From Nitrospirota bacterium (lineage in GTDB: Bacteria; Nitrospirota; Nitrospiria; 2-01-FULL-66-17), in assembly GCA_049325335.1 (NCBI GenBank), contig JBMOMC010000002.1, positions 352,001 to 416,000 on the forward strand: a stretch of DNA of 64,000 bases. The letters are read 5' to 3'. Under the pieces are notes generated by a model that was not told the origin of the DNA, ran no database searches, and saw only the letters and a list, made by a program, of their open reading frames with translations. Positions within the stretch are counted from its first letter, which is position 1, and each line of letters starts with the position of its first letter. Of the stretch, positions 22,083 to 40,533 are shown piece by piece. The translations under genes were made by a program, and so were the position numbers.

Positions 22083-23273
22083 TTACGGGGTGATCTTCAG
22101 GATCTCGCCCGCGTAGTCCACCACGTACAATTCCCGTTGCTCGTCCTCGCCAAACGCGGAAATCCGGTGGTCGGTGTCGAGGAGTTTTTGCTGTTCGATC
22201 ACGGTCGCGCCGTCATAGTGTAACGCCCAGATGCGACCCGTTCCGAAGTCGCCGTAGACATAGGCGCCGCAGAGTGCGGGGATGGCGCTCCCGCGGTACA
22301 CGCGGCCGCCGATCACGGTCGTGCCGTCCGATCGGGGGTAGTCGAAGATCGGAAGATCGAATCCTGACTTTTTGCACTTCGGATTCACACCCGGCGTGCA
22401 AATGGCCCCCTCCATCACGTTCCACCCGTAGTTGCCGCCCTTGCGGATCACGTCGATCTCTTCACGCGCGTTCTGGCCCACATCTCCGGCAAAGAGCCGG
22501 CCCGTGGCCGGATCGAACGCGAACCGCCAGGGGTTGCGCAGACCGTACGCCCAGATTTCCGGCGCCGCGCCTTTTCGCTTCACGAATGGATTGTCCGCTG
22601 GAATCCCGTAGGCCGTGGCGTCTCCGCCGTGGTCCACGTCGATGCGAAGGATCTTGCCGAGCAAGGTGGAGAGTTTTTGTCCATTACCGAGCGGGTCGTT
22701 CCCGGATCCGCCGTCTCCCAAGGCGATGTACAACATGCCGTCCGGGCCGAAGGCGACGTCTCCGCCGTTGTGGTTGGCGTAGGGCTGGGGGATCGTCATC
22801 AGGATCCGTTCGATGCGGGGATCGACTTCATCCGGTTTCGCGCCGACCTTGAATTCCGAGATTACGGTGTGCAGGCCGCCCTTGCGCGACGTGTAGTTGA
22901 CGTACAGTCGGCCGGTCTCAACAAAGTTTGGGTGGAACGCGAGCCCCAGGAGTCCCAGCTCGCCGCCCGACGTGACGCGATCGCGAATATCCAAAAACGT
23001 TTTCGATCCGGCCTGGCCCGGCTTGCGAACCTGAATCGTCCCCCGTTGCTCGACGATGAAGACGCGGCCTGTCCCGTCCCCGGCGGATTGGAAACCGACC
23101 GGCGATTTGAATCCGCTCAACGCGGGTGCGAGCCGGACCTCGGGAAACGACGGCGCGGGGTCCGGGGTGGAACAGAATAGCGCGGCGTGGGCCGGAGCCC
23201 ATGCCGTCATCAAGAACGCGATTAACGGAAGGCCGAAGCGGGTGGCCAGGCCGTGGCGGGTTGTGCGAGACAT
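22083..23273 (-). CDS. PQQ-dependent glucose/sorbosone dehydrogenase family protein
   Basis: GLLGLAFHPNF, NHNGG, GDGG, YGLRNPWR, GDVGQ..EE, NYGW; signal peptide. Confidence 0.9.
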   Translation of the reverse strand: MSRTTRHGLATRFGLPLIAFLMTAWAPAHAALFCSTPDPAPSFPEVRLAPALSGFKSPVGFQSAGDGTGRVFIVEQRGTIQVRKPGQAGSKTFLDIRDRVTSGGELGLLGLAFHPNFVETGRLYVNYTSRKGGLHTVISEFKVGAKPDEVDPRIERILMTIPQPYANHNGGDVAFGPDGMLYIALGDGGSGNDPLGNGQKLSTLLGKILRIDVDHGGDATAYGIPADNPFVKRKGAAPEIWAYGLRNPWRFAFDPATGRLFAGDVGQNAREEIDVIRKGGNYGWNVMEGAICTPGVNPKCKKSGFDLPIFDYPRSDGTTVIGGRVYRGSAIPALCGAYVYGDFGTGRIWALHYDGATVIEQQKLLDTDHRISAFGEDEQRELYVVDYAGEILKITP

Positions 23274-23533
23274 GGCGGTTCCTTTCAGGTCGAGTGATAC
23301 GGTGTTTTGTGCCGCCCATCATGGCAGAGTTTCGTGCAGAGGTCCAGTGGGGGGCCGGAACAAATGGCGTTCTGATGGGAACGGACGGGGTGTCGGTGGA
23401 GCCGGAAGCAGGTCCACGTCCGATGCCTGTGACACCGAGGAGAACTCCTGTGGTGAACTCGACGATTGCCCGGGAGATTGCGTAAGATATCTGATCTGTG
23501 GTATCTTGATATCTGTCTTTTGGAGGCAAGCAC

Positions 23534-23749
23534 ATGAAGACGTCCGTCGAGGTTGATGAAAAACTCTTGGGGCGGGTTAGGCGCCTTCTGGGGACCGAAA
23601 CCATTCGAGACACGATTCGCAAAAGCTTTGAGGCGGTGGTCCGACAGAAGGCGCTGGAGGAATCAGCGCGCCTCATGGGGACGATCGACGTGGACCTGAC
23701 TCCCGAGCAAATCCTAGCCCAGCGCCGCGCGCGTCGTGTACCTCATTGA
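23534..23749 (+). CDS. vapB: VapB-family antitoxin
   Basis: MKTSVEVDEKLL RHH-type start; overlaps the downstream PIN gene; SD GGAGG; AAGATA..TATCTT inverted repeat upstream (23484-23507). Confidence 0.8.
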   Translation: MKTSVEVDEKLLGRVRRLLGTETIRDTIRKSFEAVVRQKALEESARLMGTIDVDLTPEQILAQRRARRVPH

Positions 23750-24137
23750 CACCTCTGTGTGGGTCCATGTTCTTCGCCCGCACGGCGATTCCGCGACTCA
23801 AGAGCGCCTTCGGCCACTTCTCATCGGTGGTCAAACCGCGCTGATCGATTGGGTGATCCTTGAACTCATGACCGGTATTCGATCGCGGGAAGATGACGCA
23901 ACTCTCCGCACGTTTCTCGGACCTCTACCAAAACTTCCGGTGGATGAGCGCTGTTGGGAGGCGGCGTTCGACTTGGCCGTTGTGCTCAGAAGACGCGGCG
24001 TCACGCCCTCGGCCGCCGACTGCCTCATTGCGGCTTCCGCCATCAGACACCGCGTTCCCTTGATTCACATGGATGGGGATTTCACGGCGATTGCGCGCCA
24101 CAGCCGTCTCAAGGAATTGAGCTGGATCCGTGGATAG
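23736..24137 (+). CDS. vapC: VapC PIN-domain toxin
   Basis: LIDTSVW, ELMTG, ADCLIAA, HMDGDF acidic PIN residues. Confidence 0.9.
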   Translation: MYLIDTSVWVHVLRPHGDSATQERLRPLLIGGQTALIDWVILELMTGIRSREDDATLRTFLGPLPKLPVDERCWEAAFDLAVVLRRRGVTPSAADCLIAASAIRHRVPLIHMDGDFTAIARHSRLKELSWIRG

Positions 24138-24156
24138 AGATACAGACGGGGCGGAT

Positions 24157-25233
24157 TTACTTGAACTTGGGCGGCGGAATCACCACCACCGGGTCGCTGC
24201 TTAAGGCGCGGATGAAGGCGAGTAGATCCATCTTGTCTTGTTCGGTGAGCAGATCGAGCGGCGTGATCAACGGATGGCGGTGGGCTGGGTGTCCTTCGGC
24301 TTTCACGTAAAAATCCAAGACCTCTTCCAGCGTGGCGAACATGCCGTTGTGCATGTAGGGCGCGCTGTCAGCCACTTGCCGCAGGGACGGGGTGCGGAAC
24401 GTTTCCATGTCGTCGTCATTGAGCGTGACCTTGAATCGGCCCGGGTCGTCCGGGACACCGTCGCGCTTTGGCAGGCCCAAGGCATGGAACTGGTTGTCGG
24501 TGAAATTGGGGCCGTTGTGGCACGTCACGCACTTGGCGCGCTCGTTGAAGATTCGCACGCCGCGTTTGGCTGACTCGGACAATGCCGCGTCATCGCCGGC
24601 CATGAAGCGATCCCACGGGGAGTTGTCCGAGAGAATGGTGCGTTCGAACGCGGTCAGGGCTTGGGCAATGCCGTCCGCGCTGGGGCCGGTGCCGAATACG
24701 GAACGAAACGCCTTCACGTAACCGGGGACCGCATTGAGTTCGGCGACCAGTTGGGAGAGATCCTGGTCCATCTCGATCGGATTTTGAATCGGCTCCAGCG
24801 CCTGTTGTTCGAGCGACGTGGCCCGTCCGTCCCAGAAGAACTGGGTGCGGTACGCGACGTTATAGAGCGACGGCACGTTCCGGGTCCCCAATTGTCCCTT
24901 GACGCCCTTGGCCACGGATTGGCCGTTGGAAAATCCAAGCGCCGGGACGTGGCATGAGGCGCAGGCCAAGGTGTTGTCTTTGGACAGACGCGGGTCGAAG
25001 AACAATGTCTTGCCTAGTTCGATTTTCGCCGGTGTCTGCAAGTTGAACGCCGGAGTCGGCGGCGCGAGCAACGGATACAGGTGGAACGGCGGGCTGGGCA
25101 ACGTGTCGAACAAGGTCTGCGGCGGGTAGGCGTCGGACTTCTTGGGCCGGGCCGCCTCAACGGGCGCGGACGCGAATGTCGCGGCGAGGGTCAGGAGGAA
25201 CAGGGTGATGAATAGTACGACGCGACGTGTCAT
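24157..25233 (-). CDS. Di-heme cytochrome c peroxidase/MauG superfamily protein
   Basis: LFFDPRLS, CASCH, FWDGRA, CVTCH, FTD, TPSLR, APYMHNG; signal peptide. Confidence 0.9.
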   Translation of the reverse strand: MTRRVVLFITLFLLTLAATFASAPVEAARPKKSDAYPPQTLFDTLPSPPFHLYPLLAPPTPAFNLQTPAKIELGKTLFFDPRLSKDNTLACASCHVPALGFSNGQSVAKGVKGQLGTRNVPSLYNVAYRTQFFWDGRATSLEQQALEPIQNPIEMDQDLSQLVAELNAVPGYVKAFRSVFGTGPSADGIAQALTAFERTILSDNSPWDRFMAGDDAALSESAKRGVRIFNERAKCVTCHNGPNFTDNQFHALGLPKRDGVPDDPGRFKVTLNDDDMETFRTPSLRQVADSAPYMHNGMFATLEEVLDFYVKAEGHPAHRHPLITPLDLLTEQDKMDLLAFIRALSSDPVVVIPPPKFK

Positions 25234-25250
25234 GGTGGAAGATGGTCCGG

Positions 25251-26114
25251 CTAATAAATCAGGCGAGCGAGTTTTTCGCGGTACTCCTCCGCGAGTGGAC
25301 TTCTCATGCCGATCACTTCGAAAATTTGAAGCATCAGCTTGCGTGCCGCGTCGTCTTTGAAGTGCCGGTCTTTACCGAGAATCGCGACGTACGCGTCCAG
25401 CGCGTCGCGATAGCGCTGTGCCGCCGCGTACTGGGCGGCCAGTTCGAATCGCGTGTCCAGATCGCCGGGATTCTCGTTGACGGCAGCCTCCAGATCTGCG
25501 ATCGACGGCGCTCCCGCGTTGACTGCCGCCATGTCCATCCTGGCTTTGAGCGCGGTGACCTCGTCCTGCACCTGCACCTGACCCGGTAAACGATCATACG
25601 CGGTCCGGGCCTCGTCCCAGCGCGCCAGGAGCACCAACATCCGGAGTTCGCCGAGTCCGGCGCCGGCGTGTTTTGGGTCCTGGCCCAGGGCATCGCGGTA
25701 CGCGGCCAAGGCGTCGTCCCATCGCTGTTCGCGCTCGAACGTTGCGCCCTGGTCCACCAATTCATCGGCTTTGGTCGGGATCAATCGTTGGAGGAAGGCT
25801 TTGATGGCGGGCTCGGGAAGCGCGCCCACGAACTCGTTGACCACCTTGCCCTTGAAAAAGGCCTTCACATTGGGAATGGTCTGAATCCGGTACCGCTGCG
25901 CCAAGTTCAGATTGCGGTCGGTGTCCACCTTGGCCATGACGACTTTGCCCTGGAAGTCCTCCACCGCGTCTTCGAGGACCGGCCCCAGATACCGGCACGG
26001 CCCGCACCACTCCGCCCAAAAATCCACCACCACGGGGACCGTGTGCGAGCGTGCGATCACCCGCTCCTCAAACGTGGCCTCGTCCGCGTTAAACACCCAT
26101 TCATCATCGGTCAT
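25251..26114 (-). CDS. cnoX: Thioredoxin-TPR chaperedoxin (YbbN/CnoX)
   Basis: VDFWAEWCGPC plus C-terminal TPR ending YREKLARLIY. Confidence 0.88.
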   Translation of the reverse strand: MTDDEWVFNADEATFEERVIARSHTVPVVVDFWAEWCGPCRYLGPVLEDAVEDFQGKVVMAKVDTDRNLNLAQRYRIQTIPNVKAFFKGKVVNEFVGALPEPAIKAFLQRLIPTKADELVDQGATFEREQRWDDALAAYRDALGQDPKHAGAGLGELRMLVLLARWDEARTAYDRLPGQVQVQDEVTALKARMDMAAVNAGAPSIADLEAAVNENPGDLDTRFELAAQYAAAQRYRDALDAYVAILGKDRHFKDDAARKLMLQIFEVIGMRSPLAEEYREKLARLIY

Positions 26115-26190
26115 AAGGCCAGCAGTCTAATTCAGTCGTTCGATCGGTAGCAAGGGAGATTTTTGATCTGGTCTGTGATCCCCGCGAAGC

Positions 26191-26361
26191 GGAGCCTGTT
26201 GAGGAACGCGTCAGACGCCCCCTTCGGGGACTTCCGGCATTTGAATTCTTGGCGGTGGGTCGCAAGGCGGAGCGAGCGCCCGCACCGCAGCGTACTGGGT
26301 CGTACGTGAGAAGCGGACGCGCAGGGACAACGCTGCGTATGACCGTTCATCGACAGGCTCC
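26191..26361 (-). repeat. Structured intergenic repeat, copy B (45-nt insertion)
   Basis: On the minus strand GGAGCCTGT..CTCACGTACGACCCAGTACGCT..CTCGCTCCGCCTTGC..ACAGGCTCC; begins at the copA stop codon. Confidence 0.9.
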
Positions 26362-28724
26362 TACAGCGAGGTGCGGCGGAGGCGGAGGGAGTTGGCAATG
26401 ACCGACACCGAGCTAAAACTCATCGCCGCGCTGGCCCAAATCGGACTGATCAGCGGCCCCCCGAACGGCACCAGCAGCCCGGCCGCCACCGGCACGCCGA
26501 TCGCGTTGTACACGAACGCGAAGAACAGGTTCTGCCGGATCGTACGCATGGTGGCGCGGCTCAAGCCGCGCGCCCGTGCGATCGCGCGTAGGTCGCCTTT
26601 GACCAAGGTGACGCCCGCGCTCTGCATAGCCACGTCCGTGCCCGCGCCCATGGCGATGCCCACGTGCGCTTGGGCCAACGCGGGCGCGTCGTTGATCCCG
26701 TCACCGGCCATGGCTACGATCCGTCCCTCGGCCTGCAACGCTTGAACGATCTCGCGCTTTTGCGCTGGGAGGACTTCCGCGCGCACATCGTCGAGGCCGA
26801 GGGTCGATGCTACGGCCTGCGCGGTGACGCGCGAATCGCCGGTGACCATCACCACGCGCAGTCCGGCGCGGTGCAGGAGCGCAATGGCTTCGGGCGTGGA
26901 CGGTTTGACGGGGTCGGTCACGGACAACAGGCCCGCGGGCCGGCCGTTCATGGCGAGCCACACCACGGTGGCGCCTTTGCGGCGGTGCTCATCGGCCCGG
27001 ACCGCCAGATCGCCGAGCGCGACGCCTTGCCCGTCGAGAAAGGTTTGCGTGCCGAGCGACACGCGCGCGCCGTCGACCACGCCGCTTACGCCTTGGCCAG
27101 TGACGGAGTGAAACTCCTGCGTGTCCGAGAGTCCGAGCTGGCGGGCCTTGGACGCGGCGACGATGGCGGCCGCGAGTGGGTGTTCGCTGGCGCGTTCCAA
27201 GCTCGCGGCCACGCGCAGGATCTGATCGCCGGTAAACCCCGGCGCGGCCTCGATGCCGGTGAGCGCGGGCTTGCCCTCGGTCAATGTGCCGGTCTTGTCC
27301 ACCACCAGCGTGTCCACGCGTTCGAGAATCTCCAACGCCTCCGCGTTCTTGATCAACACGCCGGTCTCCGCGCCGCGGCCCACGCCCACCATCACGGCCA
27401 TGGGCGTGGCCAGGCCGAGCGCGCATGGGCACGCGATGATCAACACGGCCACGGCATTGACCAAGGCCAGAGCCAAGCGGGGTTCCGGGCCCCAGAGCCA
27501 CCAGCCAATGAACGCGAGCGCGCTGACGGCCATCACCAGGGGGACAAAGTAGCCGGACACGGTGTCGGCCACGTGTTGGATCGGCGCGCGGCTGCGCTGC
27601 GCGTCGCTCACCATGCGGACGATCTGGGCCAACAACGTGTCGGCTCCCACGCGGTGTGCTTTCATGATCACGGAGCCGGTGCCGTTGATGGTCCCGCCGA
27701 CCACGGCCGAACCCGCGGTCTTCTCGACCGGGATGGGCTCGCCGGTAATCATCGACTCATCGACCGACGTGCGGCCCTCGACCACCACGCCGTCCACCGG
27801 GACTTTTTCACCGGGCCTGACCCGTAAGACGTCGTCGCGCTGCACCCGTTCGATCGGGACATCTTCTTCGCGGCCGTCGCGTATCAGGCGCGCGGTTTTG
27901 GGGGCAAGGCCCAGGAGCGCGCGGATCGCGGCGCCGGTGCGGCCGCGCGCGCGAAGCTCCAGCACTTGGCCCAGCAGCACCAGGACGGTGATCACCACCG
28001 CACTGTCGAAGTACGGCTCCACCGCGCCGTGCACGCGAAAGCCTTCCGGGAACAGGCCGGGCGCGATCGTGGCTGCCGCGCTGTAACCGTACGCCGCGCC
28101 CACGCCCACCGCGATCAATGTGAACATGTTGAAATTGCGGCTCACCAACGAGGCCCAGCCGCGCTCGAAAAACGGTTTCCCGGACCAGAGCACCACCGGC
28201 GTGGCCAGGAGCAACTGGAACCAGCTCGAGACGCCCATGGGGACGGCGTGGCGCAGGGTTCCGCCGACCAACATATCGGCCATGGCCAGGGCAAATACCG
28301 GGAATCCGACGATTAAGCCGACCCAGAATCTGCGGGTCATGTCGAGCAACTCGGGATTCGGTCCTTCTGTGATCTGTACGGTGCGGGGCTCCAGCGCCAT
28401 GCCGCAGATCGGGCAGGGCCCCGGTTTATCGCTCAGCACCTCGGGGTCCATCGGGCAGATGTATTCGATCTTGGCGCCGGGCGGCGTAATCGGTGCCGGA
28501 GGAGGCTCCGGTCGTTTGACTGTGAGCGGCGCGCCGATCGTCACGAGTTGCGGCTTCCGTGGTGCGAGGTAGCGAGCCGGGTCGGCGGCGAATCGTTCCT
28601 GACAACTCGGGTTACAGAAATAGTAGGTCGTGCCGTCGTGGACGTGCGTACCACCCTTGGGATTGGCGGTCGGTACGGTCATACCACAAATAGGATCAAT
28701 GGCGGTCTGGGAACGTTCAGCCAT
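26361..28724 (-). CDS. copA: Copper-translocating P1B-type ATPase with YHS and heavy-metal binding domains
   Basis: DPICGM..YYFC YHS domain, [43 protein letters not shown]. Confidence 0.93.
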
Positions 28725-29052: not shown

Positions 29053-32000
29053 ATGAAATCACAATGGTGGTGGCGCGCAGCATTGGTCGGGTTGGTGTTG
29101 GTTGTGTTGGGAACAGGCGCGTCAATGCTCGCGCCGTCGGCAGCGCAGGCCGCCTCGTGTGCCGGCGCCACGGCGCCGTGCGCGGAAGACCCCGCGCTCG
29201 ACGCCTGCAATCAGTGCCATAGTATGACGATGACAACCGGGAACCGTAATGGCACCGACCGCCCCATCACGCTCAGCAACGGGTCTGATCGCCACATTTT
29301 AGGGCCGCGGGAACCCGATTTCACGGCGACCGTGGCCGGGATGTTGTCAAAGGGCGCCGCCGGCATCGCGGCACGGATCACCGCGTACCTGAACACAAAT
29401 TATTGCACGACCTGCACCGGGCCGATCCTTTCGAGCGCGTCGTTGTCCAATATCGTGTCGAATGGGGTGACGATAAGCTGGACGACCTCGGCGAATGATT
29501 TTGCCGACTCGATGGCCACGAGCTGCGTCTTGTACGGCACGTCGACGTCGTCGCTCACCGGTAATACGTGCGATACAGGCGACCCCAACTATGATCCGAA
29601 CAGCGCGACGCTGGTCGCCAGCCATCAAGTGACGTTGACGGGGCTGGACTCGTTGACTGAGTATTTTGTCGTGCACCAATCCACCTCGGGCGCACAGACC
29701 ACCAGCTATTCCTTGGCCTCGTCGTTTACCACCCCGCCGCCTGATGGTGGCGGTGGAGGAGACGGCGCCCTGGGGACCATCATTTCGCTCGCGGTTGGGA
29801 ATTATGACGCCGGGACTACGTTGGACTTGGGCATTGGTGTGAGCAGTAAGAATCATGTGATCGCGTACCTCGGCGTCGGGAACGGAACGTTCACCGAAGG
29901 TCAGACGCTGGCGAACGTCGGGACAACCCCGGCGGGAATTACCACCGGCGGGGTGAAGGGCGATTTCAACGAGGACGGGTTGGACGACCTTGCGGTCGTG
30001 AATTTTGCGGACGGGTCCAAGGACGTCAAAGTGTTTCTGGGCACCACGCCGTCAGGCTTTGAAACGGTCGAGGTATCACGCAAGGCGTTTGTGGATCCAC
30101 CTACCAGCGTGGTGACCGGTGACTTTACCGGGGATGGGATATTGGATCTGGCCGTGGCGACGGTGCACACGCCCGCCCCGGCGATGGGTCATGTGTTGAT
30201 TCTGCCCGGCATTGGGGTGGGGGGGAGTGGAACCGGGAGTTTCGGAGACCCGATCTTTACGATCGACGTGCCGATTTCAGTCGGCTTTGCGCCGACCATC
30301 ACGTCGATTACCCCAGGATCGGTGGACTGTCTTGGATTACCGTCCGAGATCACGATTACAGGCAACCTCTTGCTGAATGGCTCGCCCGTGTATTTAGACG
30401 GGACAACTCCCTTGACCGTCATTTCGTACTCCGCGAACGCGTCGATTGTGGCGCGGATTCCAGCAGGAACCTCGGCCGGCACGCATCTGGTGACGGTCCA
30501 GGTCGGCGCTGCCGCGGCGACGGCTTCATTCAGCGTGACGCCCAGAGGCGTGAGTATTTTCAGCGTCACCCCCTCGTCCAAACTCTATGGAGTGGACCCG
30601 TCCGGCGAGGTCATCATTTCCGGGGACGGTTTCACGGTGGGCGGAACCGTGTCGATCGGTCCCTACACCGGGACCACCGTGGCGGGATTGAGTGCGTCCT
30701 CGTCCGTGCCCTTCGTCTTTGTCAACAGCACGACGATTCGAGTGTTCCTGCCCAGTACGCAATTCCCCGTGGGTCAATATAACGTCTATGTGCTCAACCA
30801 AGACGCATGTGGCGGCACCGTGACGTTAAACAACGGCTATACCGTCGCCGCTCCCCAGCCCACCATCAGCGACCTGTCAGACCCAAACGTAACGTATGGC
30901 GTGAGCACCAGCCGATCGATTCGGGTCAACGGCACGGGATTCGTCGTCGGCGCGCAACTGACCGTGGGCGGACTCTCCGGAACCGTGGTGCAAGGAACCC
31001 TTGCCACCGCCGCTCAGCCATTCGTCTTTATTTCGAGTTCAAGCCTGGCGTTTTATTGGGGGAATACCTCATTGCCCGTGGGATCATATGGCGTCACGGT
31101 GACGAATCCAACCGCGGCCGGTGGGTTAAGTACCACGCTGGCCGGCGGGTTCGTGGTCATGGCTCCACAACCGCAGGTATCCTCGGTGTCGATCAGTCCC
31201 GTCACTTACGGGGTGACGCCGAGTCTAGCCGTGATGATCGAGGGGTCCGACTTCCTCCCCGGAGCCGTGATCACGGTGTCAAACTTGACCGGCACTACGG
31301 TCCCGGGGTCGTCGGCCACTGCCGCGGTTCCATTCGTGTTCGTGAGCAGTAGCCGACTGAGTTTCTACTGGGCCAACACGTCGCTGGCTCCGGGAACCTA
31401 TCACGTCCGCGTGGACAATCCTTCGGCCGGTGGGGGGTTGTTCGGCATCCTGACCAATGGGTTTGTCGTGAGCGGCGCCGTGCCACAGTTGTCGTACCTT
31501 ACGCCGGATCCGGTCACCTATGGGGTCAGCGTCAGCTCGCAAGTCACGATTTTCGGATCGGATTTTGTGGTCGGGGCCACGATTACCGTGGGATCAATCA
31601 GCGGCCAGACCGTGAGTGGGACGACCGCAACGTCGTCGGTGCCGTTTGTCTTTGTGTCGAGTGGGGTTCTGAGGTTTTACTGGAACAACACATCGTTGCC
31701 GCCAGGCGCGTACACGGTACAGGTCACGAATCCATCGGCGGCGGGTGGGGGATCTTCCAGCTTGGTAGCCGGCTTTACGGTGATGGCTCCCCAGCCGCAG
31801 ATTATTAATCTCACTCCGGAATCAGTAACCCACTCGATTACCCCAGGAATGTCCATCTCCGTGTTCGGGAGTGACTTCATGGTGGGTTCGACCATTACGG
31901 TCGGAGCGTTGTCCGGAGTGACCGTGGCTGGAAGCGTGGCGACGGCCGCCACACCGTTTGTGTTTACCAGCAGCGGGATCGTGAGATTCTACTGGGCCAA

Positions 32001-33042
32001 TACCTCGTTGGCGCCCGGCGTGTACAATGTGCAGGTCACCAACCCTGCTCCGGCCGGCGGTCTCAGTGGAACCCTATCGTCCGGGTTCACGGTCGTCGCG
32101 CCGTTACCAACTGTTGATGACGTGACCCCGAATCCCGTCACGTACGCAGTTACGCCGACGACCAACATTACGATTTTCGGCACCAACTTTGTCTTGGGCT
32201 CAACCGTGACGGTGGGTCCGCTGTCGGGAACTACGGTTGCCGGCACGACAGCCACCGCCGCAGTCCCGTTCGTGCGGGTGAGCAGCAGCCAGATCCGGGT
32301 GTACTGGAGCAATACCTCGCTTGCACCCGGTTCCTACACCATCACGATCGCCAACCCGTCGGCAACCGGCGGTCTTGCCGGTTCTCGAGTGAATGGGTTC
32401 ACGGTCTCGCCCGCACAACCGTTCATTGATCCGTCGACCGTCACGTCGGCTACCTGGGGAGTGTTGACGAGTCGCGCGATGAACGTGTTCGGCAGCGATT
32501 TTGTGGTGGGAGCGACGTTGACCGTCGGCAGTCTCACCGGTCAAGTCGTGACCGGGACCGCCGCGACGGCTGCGGTGCCGTTTGTCATGATCAGCAGCGG
32601 TCGGCTCCAGTTCTGGTGGCCGAATACCTCGCTGGCGCCGGGGTCGTATGCCGTCACCGTGGTAAATCCGGCTGCCTCGGGCGGACTCTCGGCCACCGCG
32701 CCCAATACATTCGTCGTGACGTCGCCGCAACCCAGCATTGCGCCGCCGCTGATTCCGTCTCCGGTGACGCGTGGTGTGACCACAAGTCGGGCGATCACGA
32801 TATTCGGCACTGACTTTACCCCTGGAGCCACGATCAGCGTAGGGGGGATTCTGGTGGGCACGACGGTCACCGGGTCCGCGGCAACTGCGGCTGTTCCGTT
32901 CGTGTTTGTCAACAGCGGGCGGCTGAGTTTCTGGTGGAACAATCTGTCGTTGCCGGTTGGATCGTACGACGTGACCGTCACCAACGCGGCGGGAGGCGGC
33001 GGATTATCCACGACGTCCGTCGGTGCGTTCGTGGTCGAGTAA
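29053..33042 (+). CDS. Large secreted protein: monoheme cytochrome c + FN3-like + FG-GAP + 9 IPT/TIG-like domains (1329 aa)
   Basis: Signal peptide (AQA), CNQCH at 29206-29220, GDFNEDGLDDLAV / GDFTGDGILDLAV FG-GAP repeats, tandem 104-aa Ig-like repeats; SD GAGGG before ATG 29053. Confidence 0.85.
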   Translation: MKSQWWWRAALVGLVLVVLGTGASMLAPSAAQAASCAGATAPCAEDPALDACNQCHSMTMTTGNRNGTDRPITLSNGSDRHILGPREPDFTATVAGMLSKGAAGIAARITAYLNTNYCTTCTGPILSSASLSNIVSNGVTISWTTSANDFADSMATSCVLYGTSTSSLTGNTCDTGDPNYDPNSATLVASHQVTLTGLDSLTEYFVVHQSTSGAQTTSYSLASSFTTPPPDGGGGGDGALGTIISLAVGNYDAGTTLDLGIGVSSKNHVIAYLGVGNGTFTEGQTLANVGTTPAGITTGGVKGDFNEDGLDDLAVVNFADGSKDVKVFLGTTPSGFETVEVSRKAFVDPPTSVVTGDFTGDGILDLAVATVHTPAPAMGHVLILPGIGVGGSGTGSFGDPIFTIDVPISVGFAPTITSITPGSVDCLGLPSEITITGNLLLNGSPVYLDGTTPLTVISYSANASIVARIPAGTSAGTHLVTVQVGAAAATASFSVTPRGVSIFSVTPSSKLYGVDPSGEVIISGDGFTVGGTVSIGPYTGTTVAGLSASSSVPFVFVNSTTIRVFLPSTQFPVGQYNVYVLNQDACGGTVTLNNGYTVAAPQPTISDLSDPNVTYGVSTSRSIRVNGTGFVVGAQLTVGGLSGTVVQGTLATAAQPFVFISSSSLAFYWGNTSLPVGSYGVTVTNPTAAGGLSTTLAGGFVVMAPQPQVSSVSISPVTYGVTPSLAVMIEGSDFLPGAVITVSNLTGTTVPGSSATAAVPFVFVSSSRLSFYWANTSLAPGTYHVRVDNPSAGGGLFGILTNGFVVSGAVPQLSYLTPDPVTYGVSVSSQVTIFGSDFVVGATITVGSISGQTVSGTTATSSVPFVFVSSGVLRFYWNNTSLPPGAYTVQVTNPSAAGGGSSSLVAGFTVMAPQPQIINLTPESVTHSITPGMSISVFGSDFMVGSTITVGALSGVTVAGSVATAATPFVFTSSGIVRFYWANTSLAPGVYNVQVTNPAPAGGLSGTLSSGFTVVAPLPTVDDVTPNPVTYAVTPTTNITIFGTNFVLGSTVTVGPLSGTTVAGTTATAAVPFVRVSSSQIRVYWSNTSLAPGSYTITIANPSATGGLAGSRVNGFTVSPAQPFIDPSTVTSATWGVLTSRAMNVFGSDFVVGATLTVGSLTGQVVTGTAATAAVPFVMISSGRLQFWWPNTSLAPGSYAVTVVNPAASGGLSATAPNTFVVTSPQPSIAPPLIPSPVTRGVTTSRAITIFGTDFTPGATISVGGILVGTTVTGSAATAAVPFVFVNSGRLSFWWNNLSLPVGSYDVTVTNAAGGGGLSTTSVGAFVVE
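30544..33039 (+). repeat. Eight tandem 312-bp (104-aa) intragenic repeats
   Basis: Units begin at 30544, 30856, 31168, 31480, 31792, 32104, 32416 and 32728. Consensus includes GSDF..GA.(I/L)TVG..G..V.G..ATAAVPFVF.SS..L.FYW.NTSL.PG.Y.V.V.NP...GG. Confidence 0.9.
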
Positions 33043-33058
33043 ACCGAATGTCGTAGGA

Positions 33059-34423
33059 ATGGGCGCGCCAAAAACCTGCGGGGTCTTGGCGTGCGTATTC
33101 TGGTTGATTAGTGCGGCAGCCCCTTCTTTCGCCGATGAGGCGGGGAAGGGGCTGTTTATTACCCAAGTGACCCTCCATCGGGACGCACCGTCTCGGGTGT
33201 TTGCGTTGACCACGTATTCGATCGGGCTACTCCGGAGCGTGGATCGCGGTGAAACGTGGTCGTCGGCCAATCACGGCATTCGGAGTTTTTCGCTGTACCG
33301 ACTCGCCCTTGACCCGAGAAATGCCGATCGTATCTACGTGGGCGCGGGCGGGGGCGGTGTCTATGTGAGCGAGGACGGGGGCAAGACCTTCGAGGAACGT
33401 AATGACGGATTGGGCAACACGGACATCGGTTTCCTGACGTTGCACCCGACACGGCCCGATCATCTGTACGTGGTCACTTCGACGGGCGTGTACCGAAGCC
33501 CTGACCGCGGGAGGACGTGGTCTCCCTGGAATCAGGGCGACCGGTTTACCGAAAGCCAACAGTGTCAGGACCTGGTGGTAGTCGCGTCGACACATCCGGA
33601 GACGGTGTTGCTGGCGTCCAATCGAGGGGTGTTCGTCCGGCGCGAAGGTGACCCTGAGTGGAAGGAGGATGCGAAGACTCTTGCCGGGCGCCGGATTACC
33701 GCCATGGCGATGCATCCTGACGAGCGGCGCGTGTTTGCCGCGGCGTTTCGCGACGGCCGGACGCTCTCGGGCGGCGGGTTGTACGAGAGCCGAAACGCCG
33801 GGTCATCGTGGCGACGCGTGGATCGCGGGCTCGACCAAGACTGGATTCGGGTCATTCGATTCGAGCCCGGGCAGCCGCGAGTGGCGTATGTGGCGACTTC
33901 GACGCGCGGGGTGCTCAAGAGCGCGGACGGCGGCGAGACGTGGTCGCCGATCAACAACGGATTAGGGAGCCTGGATGTCCGGGCGCTGACCATCGACCCG
34001 ACGGACCGGCGCAGGCTCTATGCCGGCACCCATGGCGCCGGCGTGTTTGGATCCACGGACGGGGGGGCGCATTGGCGGCCGCTCGACCGCCTGCCCGCCA
34101 TATCTCCCGAGGAGATCATCGCGTCACTGAAACACCGTGACGCCGAGGAACTATCCCCGGACCTCACGCCCCCTCCGGCGTTTTCCAGATGTAACAAGTG
34201 CCACGGCTGGACCGACCCGGCACTGAATCAGGCCGCGCACAGTCTGTGGCTCATGCCGCCCAATCGTCGCGATTGGGCGGCAACCGTTCGCAGGATGCAG
34301 GGCCCTGCTGGGTTCTCGGACGCGGAAGTGCGTGACGTCGCCGAGTTTTTGACCCGATATTCGGAATCCCGCGTCGCTCGACAACGGGCCGAGCAACGCG
34401 GCGGATCGCTCACCGCCCCGTAG
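33059..34423 (+). CDS. Secreted BNR/Asp-box beta-propeller protein with C-terminal monoheme cytochrome c
   Basis: Repeated S.D.G.(T/S)W/F Asp-boxes; CNKCH at 34190-34204 followed by RRDWAATVRRM..EVRDVAEFL..Y; signal peptide. Confidence 0.85.
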   Translation: MGAPKTCGVLACVFWLISAAAPSFADEAGKGLFITQVTLHRDAPSRVFALTTYSIGLLRSVDRGETWSSANHGIRSFSLYRLALDPRNADRIYVGAGGGGVYVSEDGGKTFEERNDGLGNTDIGFLTLHPTRPDHLYVVTSTGVYRSPDRGRTWSPWNQGDRFTESQQCQDLVVVASTHPETVLLASNRGVFVRREGDPEWKEDAKTLAGRRITAMAMHPDERRVFAAAFRDGRTLSGGGLYESRNAGSSWRRVDRGLDQDWIRVIRFEPGQPRVAYVATSTRGVLKSADGGETWSPINNGLGSLDVRALTIDPTDRRRLYAGTHGAGVFGSTDGGAHWRPLDRLPAISPEEIIASLKHRDAEELSPDLTPPPAFSRCNKCHGWTDPALNQAAHSLWLMPPNRRDWAATVRRMQGPAGFSDAEVRDVAEFLTRYSESRVARQRAEQRGGSLTAP

Positions 34424-34450
34424 TCCAACGACCGATGAGGCGGTGCGACC

Positions 34451-34497
34451 TTGACAACACGTACGAGTCCGTGATATTAGACTGACCAGTCGGTTTT
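34451..34497 (+). promoter_or_regulatory. Promoter plus putative TetR operator
   Basis: TTGACA at 34451; imperfect palindrome TAGACTGACCAGTCGGTTTT (34478-34497) resembling NemR/LmrA-type boxes, directly upstream of the tetR gene. Confidence 0.6.
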
Positions 34498-34504
34498 ATA
34501 TGGT

Positions 34505-35122
34505 ATGTTATCGGCTAAGTCTGACATCACACGTAAGGGAGAGCGGACACGGCAACGGATCGTGGAGACGGCGCGCGTCTTGTTCCATGCTCGGGGGTAT
34601 GGCAACACGAGTATGGACGACATCGTGCGTAGGTCCCGCGTGACCAAGGGAAACCTGTACTACTACTTCGCGAGCAAGGAGGAACTAGGGCAGGCGGTGC
34701 TGGAGCTCACTATCGCGGAGCAGTTCGAGTCCGGCGCGGCGCTCGAGCACAACGGGCCGGAGGAACACATTGCCGCGATGTTCCGACGCGCCGAACAAGC
34801 GTTGTCGGACGGCCGGTGCAAGGGGGGGTGTCTCTTCGGGAACTTGGCGTTGGAAGTGTCTGATTCGCACGACGGACTGCGACGGACGCTTGATCAGGCG
34901 TTCACCGCGTGGGAGCGGCGGGTGGCCGATCTGTTGGCGCAAGGGGTTCGCGACGGGGTGTTCTCGCGTGAGCTCGAACCGCGCGCCGCCGCGCGGTTCG
35001 TGGTGGCGACGCTGGAGGGGGGCATTCTGCTGGCCAAGGTGACGCGCGAGGTGGACGCGCTGCGCGCGTGCGCCGCGATGGTGGCGCGTGTGTTGGATGG
35101 ATTTCGGGAGACGTCGCGATGA
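34505..35122 (+). CDS. TetR/AcrR family regulator (NemR/LmrA-like)
   Basis: RGYGNTSMDDI..VTKGNLYYYFASKEEL HTH; GCLFGNLALE. Confidence 0.92.
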   Translation: MLSAKSDITRKGERTRQRIVETARVLFHARGYGNTSMDDIVRRSRVTKGNLYYYFASKEELGQAVLELTIAEQFESGAALEHNGPEEHIAAMFRRAEQALSDGRCKGGCLFGNLALEVSDSHDGLRRTLDQAFTAWERRVADLLAQGVRDGVFSRELEPRAAARFVVATLEGGILLAKVTREVDALRACAAMVARVLDGFRETSR

Positions 35123-35136
35123 GCGAGGGACGCGCG

Positions 35137-35895
35137 ATGCGGCTGCGGGACAAGGTGGCGGTGGTCACGGGCGGCGGAACCGGGATCGGCGAGGCGATCG
35201 CCCGTCGATTTGCCGGGGAAGGCGCTCGAGTGGCGATCACCGGGCGCCGCCAGGCCGTGTTGGACCGCGTGGCGGTCGATATCGGGTGCGCCGGCGGTCG
35301 GGCCGTGGCGTTGCCGGGCAGCGTGACCAACCAGCGCGACGTGCAGGACGCGGTGGCGAGCGTGCTGAACACGTTCGGCCGGATCGACGTGCTCGTCAAC
35401 AACGCGGGGAACCTGTTTCACGCGGGGCCGCTGCACGAGACCACGGACCAGGTGTGGAACGAAACCATCGATCTCTTTCTCACGGCGGTGTTCCGGTTCA
35501 GCCGCGCGGTGATCCCTCATATGCTGGCGCAGGGCGGGGGCGTGATCATCAATATCTCGACCGTCTCGGCGCTCAAGGCGATGCCGGGGTTTCCCGCGCA
35601 CGCGTACGCCGCGGCGAAGGCGGGCGTGAACATGTTGACCAAGACCATCGCGATCCAATACGCCAAGCAGGGCATCCGGTGCAACGCGATCTGCCCGGCG
35701 GGCGTGGACACTCCCGGGGTGGCCGCGATGACGTCCGATCCCGTGTTGCGGGCCGGATTTGACGCCATGCATCCGATCGGACGCATGGGCCGGCCTGAGG
35801 AGATCGCCGCGGCCGCAGCCTACCTGGCGTCCGACGACGCGGTGTGGACTACGGGCGTCATCCTCGCGGTGGACGGCGGAGTGACGGCTCAGTGA
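35137..35895 (+). CDS. SDR family oxidoreductase
   Basis: MRLRDKVAVVTGGGTGIG, NNAG, YAAAK, VDGG. Confidence 0.92.
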   Translation: MRLRDKVAVVTGGGTGIGEAIARRFAGEGARVAITGRRQAVLDRVAVDIGCAGGRAVALPGSVTNQRDVQDAVASVLNTFGRIDVLVNNAGNLFHAGPLHETTDQVWNETIDLFLTAVFRFSRAVIPHMLAQGGGVIINISTVSALKAMPGFPAHAYAAAKAGVNMLTKTIAIQYAKQGIRCNAICPAGVDTPGVAAMTSDPVLRAGFDAMHPIGRMGRPEEIAAAAAYLASDDAVWTTGVILAVDGGVTAQ

Positions 35896-35956
35896 CGCAA
35901 AGACTCGCACACGGGTGGTCGTATCACCAGACAGAATGGGAAAAACATAAAGACCT

Positions 35957-35989
35957 TGGAGTGACGCGCTCGCGCGCGTCACTCCATTT
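35957..35989 (+). terminator. Perfect 13-bp hairpin, terminator-like
   Basis: TGGAGTGACGCGC-TCGC-GCGCGTCACTCCA followed by TTT. Confidence 0.5.
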
Positions 35990-36025
35990 CGCGAGCGAGG
36001 AAACGAGGAAGGGAGGTGAGAGCGT

Positions 36026-36217
36026 ATGGAGTGTGTGAAATGTCGGGGACTGATGGTGCCTGACCGGTTCGTGGACCTGGCGGAAAGCGGGGAGCGCGAG
36101 TTCGGCGGGTGGCGGTGTCTGGTGTGCGGCAACATCACCGATCCGGTGATCGTGGCCAACCGGCTTCAGCCGCCCGCGCCCAAGCGGCCGCTGCGCAAGC
36201 GGCAGCTTGCGGCGTAA
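36026..36217 (+). CDS. Small Nitrospira-type zinc-ribbon protein
   Basis: MECVKCRGLM..GWRCLVCGNITDPVIVANR; strong SD GGAGGT. Confidence 0.8.
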   Translation: MECVKCRGLMVPDRFVDLAESGEREFGGWRCLVCGNITDPVIVANRLQPPAPKRPLRKRQLAA

Positions 36218-36234
36218 TTGGAACGCGAGGACGT

Positions 36235-37212
36235 ATGACGCACGCGGCAGTGATCGAACGCACTGGGGGCCCCGAGGTTCTGACCTGGCGCGAATACGCG
36301 GTGCCTGATCCGGGACCGGGCGAAGCGCGGGTTCGGCACCGCGCGGTGGGGTTGAATTTCATCGACGTGTATCACCGGCGTGGATTGTACCCGCTGCCCG
36401 CGCTACCGGCGGTCATCGGATCGGAAGCCGCGGGTCGCGTCGAAGCGGTAGGCCCCGGCGTTCGTGATGTCGCGGTGGGCGACCGCGTGGCCTATGCGGG
36501 CGGACCCACCGGGGCCTACAGCGAAGCGCGCGTGGTGCCCGTGGACCGGCTCGTCAGGTTGCCGGACGGGATCGACGACCGCCATGCCGCCGCCATGATG
36601 CTCAAGGGCATGACCGCGGAATACCTGCTGCGCCGAACGTTCCGCGTCGGGCCGGGACACACCATTCTGGTGCACGCTGCGGCCGGCGGCGTGGGGTTGA
36701 TCATGTGCCAATGGGCGTCGGCGTTGGGCGCCACCGTGATCGGCACCGTGGGCACGCGTGAGAAAGCCTTGTTGGCCGCCTCGCACGGGTGTGCGCACCC
36801 CATCGTGACGTCGGAGGAAGACTTCGTGGCGCGCGTGAAATCGATCACCAACGGCCGTGGCGTGCCCGTGGTGTACGATTCGGTGGGCCAGGACACATTC
36901 ATGCGCTCGCTCGACTGCCTCACCCCGCGCGGGATGATGGTCAGCTTCGGCCAATCCTCGGGCATGGTCCCGCTGTTGGACATCACGGTCCTGTCGGCCA
37001 AGGGCTCGTTGTATCTGACCCGGCCGACCTTGTTCGGGTACACCGCGACGCGAGCAGACCTCATCACCAGCGCGTCGGCAGTGTTCGACGTGGTGCTCAA
37101 GGGCGCGGTGCGCATTGAAGTCGGCCAAACCTACCCGTTGCGCGAGGTGGCGCGCGCACACGCGGACCTGGAAGCGCGCCGCACCATGGGCTCGACCGTG
37201 CTCATTCCATGA
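36235..37212 (+). CDS. qor: NADPH:quinone oxidoreductase (zeta-crystallin family)
   Basis: GLNFIDVY..GLYP, HAAAGGVG, VVYDSVG, GSLYLTRPTL. Confidence 0.92.
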   Translation: MTHAAVIERTGGPEVLTWREYAVPDPGPGEARVRHRAVGLNFIDVYHRRGLYPLPALPAVIGSEAAGRVEAVGPGVRDVAVGDRVAYAGGPTGAYSEARVVPVDRLVRLPDGIDDRHAAAMMLKGMTAEYLLRRTFRVGPGHTILVHAAAGGVGLIMCQWASALGATVIGTVGTREKALLAASHGCAHPIVTSEEDFVARVKSITNGRGVPVVYDSVGQDTFMRSLDCLTPRGMMVSFGQSSGMVPLLDITVLSAKGSLYLTRPTLFGYTATRADLITSASAVFDVVLKGAVRIEVGQTYPLREVARAHADLEARRTMGSTVLIP

Positions 37213-40457: not shown

Positions 40458-40533
40458 GGGGCTGTAGCGCAGTTGGGAGCGCGTCAGACTGGCAGTCTGA
40501 AGGTCAGGGGTTCGATCCCCCTCAGCTCCACCA
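40458..40533 (+). tRNA. tRNA-Ala (GGC)
   Basis: GGGGCTG acceptor stem with G3-U70, TCAGA-CT-GGC-AG-TCTGA anticodon arm, GTTCGA T-loop, CCA end; TTGACA-N18-TATTCT promoter at 40370-40399. Confidence 0.97.

Follow-up and report, generated by a model that had tools for sequence, protein, structure and literature searches.

Two adjacent genes at positions 29053 to 34423 of a 64,000-nucleotide stretch of a Nitrospirota genome of the class Nitrospiria (contig JBMOMC010000002.1 of assembly GCA_049325335.1, positions 352,001 to 416,000; hereafter the window) encode a long stalk protein headed by a predicted monohaem cytochrome domain and a beta-propeller that carries a related monohaem domain. We propose, with a probability of about one half, that both products belong to a larger complex of the cell surface, exported by the type II system, through which electrons would pass singly; the flow would probably be inward, from an extracellular donor of high potential. 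An examination of the letters alone, hereafter the sequence-only reading, had described the two genes as a self-contained pair in which an adhesin-like rod presents a haem away from the cell. Judged from gene content, the unit is instead a recurring six-to-eight-gene set of uncultured Nitrospiria, which lies on two contigs in the genome of the two genes (G000; other G numbers designate its relatives).

The two genes were recovered at exactly the coordinates first given for them, co-oriented, separated by 16 bp, and each encoding a predicted signal peptide and a single CxxCH motif (residues 52-56 in gene 1 and 378-382 in gene 2), where composition predicts 0.0006 and 0.0013 such motifs, respectively. 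Both N-termini are hydrophobic with an AxA-type site at their end, and no further segment exceeds a Kyte-Doolittle value of 1.55 (a measure of hydropathy and not a signal-peptide predictor). Their features are the following.

29053..33042, + strand: gene 1, stalk protein with monohaem head (P0001), ATG to TAA, 1329 aa.
29053..29151, + strand: predicted Sec signal peptide, residues 1-33 (sequence, hydropathy, homologue N-termini).
29152..29418, + strand: head H1, predicted monohaem c domain like those of SorB and quinohaemoprotein amine dehydrogenase (QHNDH); CxxCH at 29206-29220, Met97 at 29341-29343.
29419..29748, + strand: fibronectin type III (FN3) domain (fold match with Z 12.0, root-mean-square deviation 2.2, 96 aligned).
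29776..30282, + strand: FG-GAP repeats, partial propeller (Pfam E 1.3e-8; model).
30286..33039, + strand: nine immunoglobulin (Ig)-like repeats, NF058597 'choice-of-anchor Z', reaching the stop codon.
33059..34423, + strand: gene 2, propeller-monohaem subunit of class D (P0002), ATG to TAG, 454 aa.
33059..33133, + strand: predicted Sec signal peptide, residues 1-25 (sequence, hydropathy, homologue starts).
33146..34078, + strand: seven-bladed Asp-box beta-propeller (model with a mean predicted local distance difference test, pLDDT, of 91.7; fold search).
34106..34366, + strand: monohaem domain H2; CxxCH at 34190-34204, Met413 at 34295-34297, three invariant Trp.

The haem domains H1 and H2 are related (hhalign 93.7%, E 2e-7). 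The common pattern noticed in them by the sequence-only reading was upheld, with the correction that the head of gene 1 has Phe at a position occupied by Trp in 18 of 19 aligned heads. All 19 share CxxCH and the distal Met without exception. Among 30 database homologues of H1, some of them identical to aligned heads, Met was present in every one and CxxCH in 28, the two others beginning downstream of the motif. CxxCH was likewise found in all 35 H2-profile domain matches of the loci first fetched and in 39 of 42 strong H2 representatives, of which two more were fragments and one (P0057) had CxxxCH. The family is small, with 44 clusters at E <=1e-10 among 1.84 billion representatives. A third relative, H3, stands at the front of another propeller type, with C, C, H, W, and M invariant in 19/19 sequences; across the sampled H1, H2, and H3 domains, C, C, H, and M were invariant in 35/35. 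The top matches of a combined profile were SorB (E 3.1e-5), the QHNDH alpha subunit (7.4e-4), and cytochrome cz (0.002). Only this combined profile gave significant matches, single-family profiles being weak and single-sequence searches of the PDB with the haem domains returning nothing useful; fold searches were taken up by FN3 and propeller matches, and PF09098 matched weakly in 16 of 25 H2 domains. With these matches and the conservation of CxxCH and Met, the three domains are predicted to be His/Met monohaem c domains of the SorB/QHNDH-alpha type with a W-x-x-x-V-x-x-M helix, in agreement with the first assignment. In SorB and QHNDH, the distal Met ligates the haem iron. A separate protein of 1337 aa (P0063) carries 14 monohaem domains on proline linkers, in a layout like that of PgcA, with a weak match to H2 in each domain.

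We read the signal peptide of gene 1 as probably cleaved and not that of a lipoprotein, because the Cys changes position or is missing in homologues. The extra Cys pairs of H1 (36/43 and 118/121) would form disulfides. The FN3-like, FG-GAP, and nine Ig domains announced for this protein were all recovered; in the model, the FG-GAP part (about 170 aa) forms no more than about four blades, and NCBIfam NF058597 matches seven stretches of the repeat region. Repeats R3-R9 are mutually 47-58% identical, R1 is divergent, and the whole region contains 4.5% charged residues. Homologues have 6-10 Ig copies, and in all 33 repeat-bearing sequences no residue follows the last repeat, which leaves no C-terminal anchor. 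The Asp-box propeller and C-terminal haem domain described for gene 2 were also upheld, with seven blades in the model. Its propeller is closest to those of GH74 and Ycf48 (Z 29.7 to 6P2M), and the invariant propeller columns of H2 subunits consist of Gly, Trp, and a single Asp of the Asp-box, none of them being His, Cys, or Met. Leads from a protein atlas consisted of two Asp-box plus cytochrome c clusters (score 0.90, 160-163 shared features), under the usual same-family level.

The usual set comprises four propeller-haem paralogues of fixed classes, one haem-first propeller (H3), one haem-less repeat protein, and the stalk. In G000, the remainder of the set forms a tight run on the other contig (C7:46636-54742) with three propeller-H2 genes, the H3-propeller, a YVTN propeller, and the haem-less repeat protein. 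Among 61 Nitrospiria genomes, we found the head in 17, propeller-H2 in 19 (strong matches), the haem-first propeller in 18, and the haem-less repeat protein in 16 (strong matches), having dropped from these counts one weak H2 match with a stop and weak unlinked repeat-protein matches. All four components were present in 14 genomes and none in 40, numbers that come from related genomes and are thus not independent. The head and H3 disagree in three genomes (G006, G007, and G016), each incomplete or at a contig edge, and the head and H2 disagree in six: the best-tracking partner of the head is the haem-first propeller and not gene 2. In a sample of 401 genomes of the phylum, H2 was present in 8 and H3 in 7, one of them outside the class, and neither was found in 75 f3 or 40 f15 genomes.

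Stalk genes were located in or beside the propeller run in ten genomes (G009, G011, G016, G022, G031, G033, G038, G042, G043, and G068), and the genes for the repeat protein, a class C subunit, and the stalk follow one another directly in G004 and G005. The class D gene directly follows the stalk in 7 of the 17 head-bearing genomes, which substantiates the suggested linkage of the two genes; it is within two genes in 4, not so placed in 4, and at a contig edge in 2. In a tree of 67 propeller-H2 units (quick search version), classes B (8 rows), C (15), and D (20) each obtained a Shimodaira-Hasegawa-like approximate likelihood ratio (SH-aLRT) support of 100 among the 61 rows outside the G006/G009/G021 group; class A (16 rows) was drawn open in the tree, its definition depending in part on the location of its genes ahead of the haem-first gene. 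Seven genomes (G011, G022, G031, G033, G038, G042, and G043) have one each of A, B, C, and D, and G000-G003 have A, C, and two D, gene 2 being that class D copy which accompanies the stalk. Fusions combine two to four subunits in one chain in many combinations (P0024, P0025, P0026, P0043, and P0045), and FG-GAP domains are fused to propeller-haem subunits in P0046 and P0052. We infer that the products probably form a hetero-oligomer, since fixed classes, constant number, and promiscuous fusion are the traces expected of one. None of the observations named at the outset as fatal to the original idea, namely homologues lacking CxxCH or the Met, failure of the genes to co-occur, and a match to a characterised family, was made.

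The head of the stalk is constant and the modules behind it vary: FG-GAP with 6-10 NF058597 repeats, YVTN with CARDB, double YVTN, or FN3 with an Asp-box propeller and a MopE-like motif. There are four stalk genes with a haem head in G038 and two in G068; G022 and G068 also have haem-less repeat giants within the cluster or next to it. The role first given to the stalk was not upheld in that form, the same repeat being used in a haem-less giant of G000 and the stalk being swapped for unrelated modules elsewhere. The G000 giant is a surface protein that combines these Ig repeats with FN3-like domains and has a masked stretch inside (C43:180644-187634, L004:10644-17634). In G028, a stalk preceding a class B gene (G028:C146, L054:1526-5347) keeps the FG-GAP and Ig repeats, with a plastocyanin-like head and an InlB-B-type domain replacing the haem head and FN3. 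This head matched PF00127 at 27.5 bits (cut-off 21.2) and plastocyanin at E 2.7e-8, with His, Cys, His, and Met aligned in type 1 copper order; having the cupredoxin fold and the four ligands of type 1 (blue) copper, it is a putative copper-binding domain. Since this copper-type domain takes the place of the haem head on the same stalk, the swap suggests that selection acts on a one-electron carrier, probably of high potential.

A GspC-like gene lies in or beside the cluster at seven loci in six genomes (G009, G016, G033, G038 twice, G043, and G068). It aligns with the GspC of G000 at hhalign 98.6% and always accompanies stalks other than those with NF058597 repeats. A search of the 61 genomes for GspC returned six strong matches, which are the cluster copies (the same that had built the query). 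Both proteins have signal peptides and the genome has a type II system, as expected for type II substrates, and since six genomes hold an extra GspC in the cluster, gene content points to type II export of the complex. The PDZ domain of Vibrio EpsC (GspC) is needed for one Ig-bearing substrate, which it selects (PMC12369372). A lipobox-like Cys is present in 9 of the 15 haem-less repeat proteins with their own N-terminus and also in the second class D copy of G000-G005, which we read as probable export and lipid anchoring via other subunits in several lineages.

Concerning the energy metabolism of the host, G000 has haem-assembly genes, ATP citrate lyase, multihaem clusters, and three Cyc2-like genes, named after an N-terminal motif that we take to be that of Cyc2, no family model having matched. 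Haem-copper oxidase and SoxB were not found in five of five genomes. None of the three molybdopterin matches in G000 has the size that we assume for NxrA, and one of them sits with nitrite reductase genes; no full uptake hydrogenase was found among the hydrogenase matches of G000, which span the first 69 positions only. The same genome encodes two five-haem proteins in tandem, 1158 and 1112 aa long, neither of which has an NCBIfam match (C43, L072:4807-11932).

In the proposed mechanism, the proteins would be exported by Sec and receive their haem in the periplasm. Next, about four propeller-haem subunits would assemble with a single haem-first propeller and a single haem-less repeat protein, which in several lineages is probably the lipoprotein anchor; the propeller scaffolds would position five or six His/Met haems, and the type II system would export the complex. 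The stalk head would dock on the propeller-haem assembly as a one-electron entry or relay site, with the Ig repeats facing outward as a variable adhesin or tether (to a surface or matrix) that carries no electrons. Finally, a conduit in the outer membrane, Cyc2-like or porin-multihaem, would hand the electrons on to the respiratory chain. This scheme inverts the sequence-only reading because a single haem cannot conduct along the rod: electron tunnelling needs less than about 2 nm, the nine Ig domains span about 35-40 nm with no cofactor motif, and one haem on such an insulating rod cannot act as a wire. The docking of the head, the onward path of the electrons, and the donor are the weakest parts of the proposal. 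Inward flow from a donor such as Fe(II) or Mn(II) would be our best guess, because of the copper swap, the ATP citrate lyase, and the Cyc2-like and multihaem genes of G000, and because SoxB, an NxrA-sized enzyme, and a full uptake hydrogenase were not found. Metal oxidation in particular is a tentative suggestion, well short of even odds. Somewhat more doubtful is the fullest version of the proposal, a new extracellular electron-uptake machine built as a six-propeller ring in which five propellers carry a His/Met haem each; a type II system with a dedicated GspC would export it, and an interchangeable adhesin with a one-electron head, haem or blue copper, would clip onto it.

Several observations weigh against this proposal. 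Regarding export and anchoring, an extra GspC was not found in G000, which has only the housekeeping copy in its gspC-G run, and 6 of the 15 repeat proteins are without lipobox, so that the anchor is not universal. For the onward path, the cluster has no conserved porin gene, stalk genes adjoin a Cyc2-like gene in G038 only, and the Cyc2 association (17/21 versus 4/40) is biased, the query coming from G000 and family f15 having been missed entirely. The copper-head swap comes from a single genome and a 5.9 kb contig; no second copper-headed stalk was seen among the best 120 of 699 matches listed, the haem-first propeller was not found in G028, and the cluster stalk of G006 has neither a haem nor a recognisable copper head (this genome is 65% complete and the gene partly masked). 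G019 (95% complete) and G026 (90%) have the head and the haem-first propeller without H2, gene 2 thus being dispensable there. The structure of H1 predicted without haem was poor (pLDDT 36-79 per block), and His/Met haems can serve metal reduction too, as in PgcA.

Among other explanations, the set could encode a periplasmic or surface oxidoreductase like QHNDH, hydrazine synthase, or the quinohaemoprotein dehydrogenases, in which a propeller holds the substrate or cofactor and the haems remove electrons. The QHNDH-alpha/SorB-like haem domain and the invariant Arg and Glu residues of the haem-first propeller would fit such an enzyme, propeller plus cytochrome is an enzyme layout, and a YVTN propeller beside the set in several genomes has weak hydrazine synthase beta and QHNDH beta matches, far under cut-off. 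We nevertheless consider it improbable: the invariant columns of the H2 propellers are structural, no cofactor-synthesis gene is conserved at the loci, and a periplasmic enzyme needs neither four paralogues nor a repeat stalk of 1,000-1,700 aa nor an extra GspC. Slightly less probable is that the set forms a surface layer or a platform for adhesins, in which the haems would not feed respiration but act as sensors or buffers of the redox state or of gases (O2, NO, peroxide). The stalk is indeed a generic surface module that is also used without haem, and the haem-less giants at the cluster, the multiple haem-headed stalks, and the lack of a conserved porin would be as expected. Yet the distal Met implies a six-coordinate iron, which is a poor gas binder, the loci have no conserved gene for a sensor kinase or an anti-sigma factor, and a type 1 copper domain can substitute for the head.

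The literal version of the original idea, a cell-anchored rod that holds its haem tens of nm out for electron transfer to minerals with gene 2 as sole partner, draws on the frequent position of class D directly after the stalk or within two genes of it; tethered monohaem domains do work in PgcA (PMC11520253), and a non-covalent C-terminal anchor is possible. The absence of any anchor past the last repeat, the single redox centre without a flexible linker long enough for fold-back, and the equally tight co-occurrence of the other subunits make it a quite unlikely account. We give still less weight to a partnership with a giant MnxG-like multicopper oxidase, from which the set would divert Mn(II)-oxidation electrons or for which it would organise oxide deposition. 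The rest of the set adjoins such an oxidase in G000-G003, and accessory genes of the oxidase cluster flank it in G031 and G038, but the oxidases occur in 55 of 61 genomes, most of them without the set, and the adjacency was observed in a single genus.

An assembly artefact was ruled out for the two genes: in sequencing run X1, which may be the source sample, one contig spans 28500-34669 of the window with 0 differences and even depth. Short pieces with 0-2 differences are present in one subsurface, one groundwater, and one sediment metagenome; among the data sets listed as containing the sequence, none was of RNA. The same run contains a second relative (record 2) over 32754-34669 of the window, about 80% identical, at about one tenth of the depth and with unchanged gene order. 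A promoter and terminator scan gave results at chance level. Upstream of gene 1, the minus strand at 22083-28724 of the window encodes glucose/sorbosone dehydrogenase-like, dihaem peroxidase/MauG-like, thioredoxin-like, and heavy-metal ATPase-like proteins, which are not conserved beside gene 1 in G001-G003. Downstream, TetR, short-chain dehydrogenase-like, and quinone oxidoreductase-like genes at 34505-37212 are common to G001, and a tRNA-Ala(GGC) gene is at 40458-40533. We rejected the neighbours in the window (copper ATPase, peroxidase-like, TetR, and short-chain dehydrogenase genes) as parts of the system, the upstream genes already differing in G001-G003.

Other features were observed at the propeller loci. 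Two giant MnxG-like multicopper oxidases with accessory genes lie beside the propeller run of G000 (C7:28466-45800; L001, L003). In G000 and G001, the class C subunit of this run (C7:46636-48657, L001:6636-8657) has an FGE-sulfatase domain fused to it; in G003 the two are separate. A conserved dihaem protein of about 625 aa is encoded inside the cluster in G009 (L045:6572-8467) and G006 (L055:4260-6131), the G009 copy being without Pfam or NCBIfam match. The stalk homologue of G022 (C1, L040:2-3287) consists of two open reading frames, the split falling between the FG-GAP domains and the repeats, where the sequence contains no N, and a repeat protein of 1986 aa is encoded between it and the class D gene. 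In G011, G019, and G026 (L034, L043, and L044), an MMPL transporter gene and a gene for a small protein resembling outer-membrane proteins are upstream of the cluster, with DUF1302 genes near; a similar MMPL gene is near a Cyc2-like gene in G000 (L069).

As far as we searched, the anatomy is new, every fold is known, and the function proposed here would follow from sequence and gene content. The sequence-only reading knew of no description of the architecture, and none of the gene set was found in the literature searched either (titles and abstracts, few subscription papers). The known routes of electron exchange with the outside of the cell are porin-cytochrome conduits, multihaem wires, and tethered haems; an assembly of several propeller-monohaem subunits and an exchangeable adhesin with a redox head would depart from all of these. 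If the proposal is correct, it would couple the choice of a surface to the harvesting of electrons in uncultured, probably metal-oxidising autotrophic Nitrospiria. The set is confined to some Nitrospiria lineages, for which it offers a marker and a testable lead on the energy source. Expression and measurement of the small haem domains and of single subunits would require no culture.

Compared with known systems, the set shares with QHNDH (PDB 1JJU, 1JMX) a related haem domain, Ig-like domains after it, and a seven-bladed propeller partner. It differs in that gene 1 and all complete head homologues have a single CxxCH, where the QHNDH alpha subunit is dihaem, and in its Asp-box propellers with their own haem, several paralogues, and long variable stalk. 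Neither the gamma peptide with its cysteine tryptophylquinone (CTQ) nor a radical SAM gene was found among the listed cluster neighbours; together with the single haem, this bears out the early statement that the locus is not a QHNDH operon. PF08992 (QHNDH gamma) had no match in five of five genomes in a search without positive control, and for the beta subunit (TIGR03907) gene 2 had no match and the YVTN subunit scored 40.8 against a cut-off of 223. A MoaA-like gene, assigned from its sequence start only, lies beside the cluster in G011 and G019. The best haem-fold matches are SorB (PDB 2BLF) and the C-terminal domain of cytochrome cz (3A9F), in which CxxCH, Trp, and Met align with our domains. 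In contrast to SorB, there is no SorA-type molybdoenzyme in the cluster, and the domain is grafted on propellers and stalk. For the propellers, the closest folds are GH74 xyloglucanase, Ycf48, and sortilin; GH74 has two tandem propellers that each give a catalytic Asp, whereas here a single propeller is joined to a cytochrome, and no invariant Asp was found in gene 2 homologues at the first-blade motif, where we presume the catalytic Asp to lie. Hydrazine synthase is a hetero-oligomer of propellers and c-type haems and shares this general layout, with a different propeller type; against its NCBIfam models, genes 1 and 2 had no match and the best beta score was 117.5 (cut-off 560). G000 also encodes a hydrazine synthase alpha-like trihaem protein, far under the family cut-off (C2:91924-94335, L074:3927-6335).

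The Cyc2 and porin-cytochrome complexes of Manganitrophaceae belong to the same host class and have the same proposed role in electron uptake from extracellular metal (PMC9040806). They differ from the present set, which has no beta-barrel or multihaem subunit, and the word 'propeller' is absent from the main text of that paper. Of the porin-cytochrome conduits (Cyc2, porin-cytochrome complexes, MtrAB), no barrel gene is conserved in the cluster, which the small outer-membrane protein-like gene precedes in G011, G019, and G026. PgcA of Geobacter sulfurreducens is described in PMC11520253 as an extracellular mineral-reducing cytochrome, a single chain with separate monohaem domains, two of them His-Met, on flexible (PT)x linkers and with no packed haem chain. 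It carries several haems on Pro/Thr linkers in one lipoprotein without propellers, where the Nitrospiria set has one haem per unit and folded spacers; no PgcA chain was among the listed PDB matches (for the combined profile, the best 60 of 98). The system thus differs from QHNDH, hydrazine synthase, GH74, PgcA, and the porin conduits in the features that define each of them, and it works most like the extracellular cytochromes without a packed haem chain.

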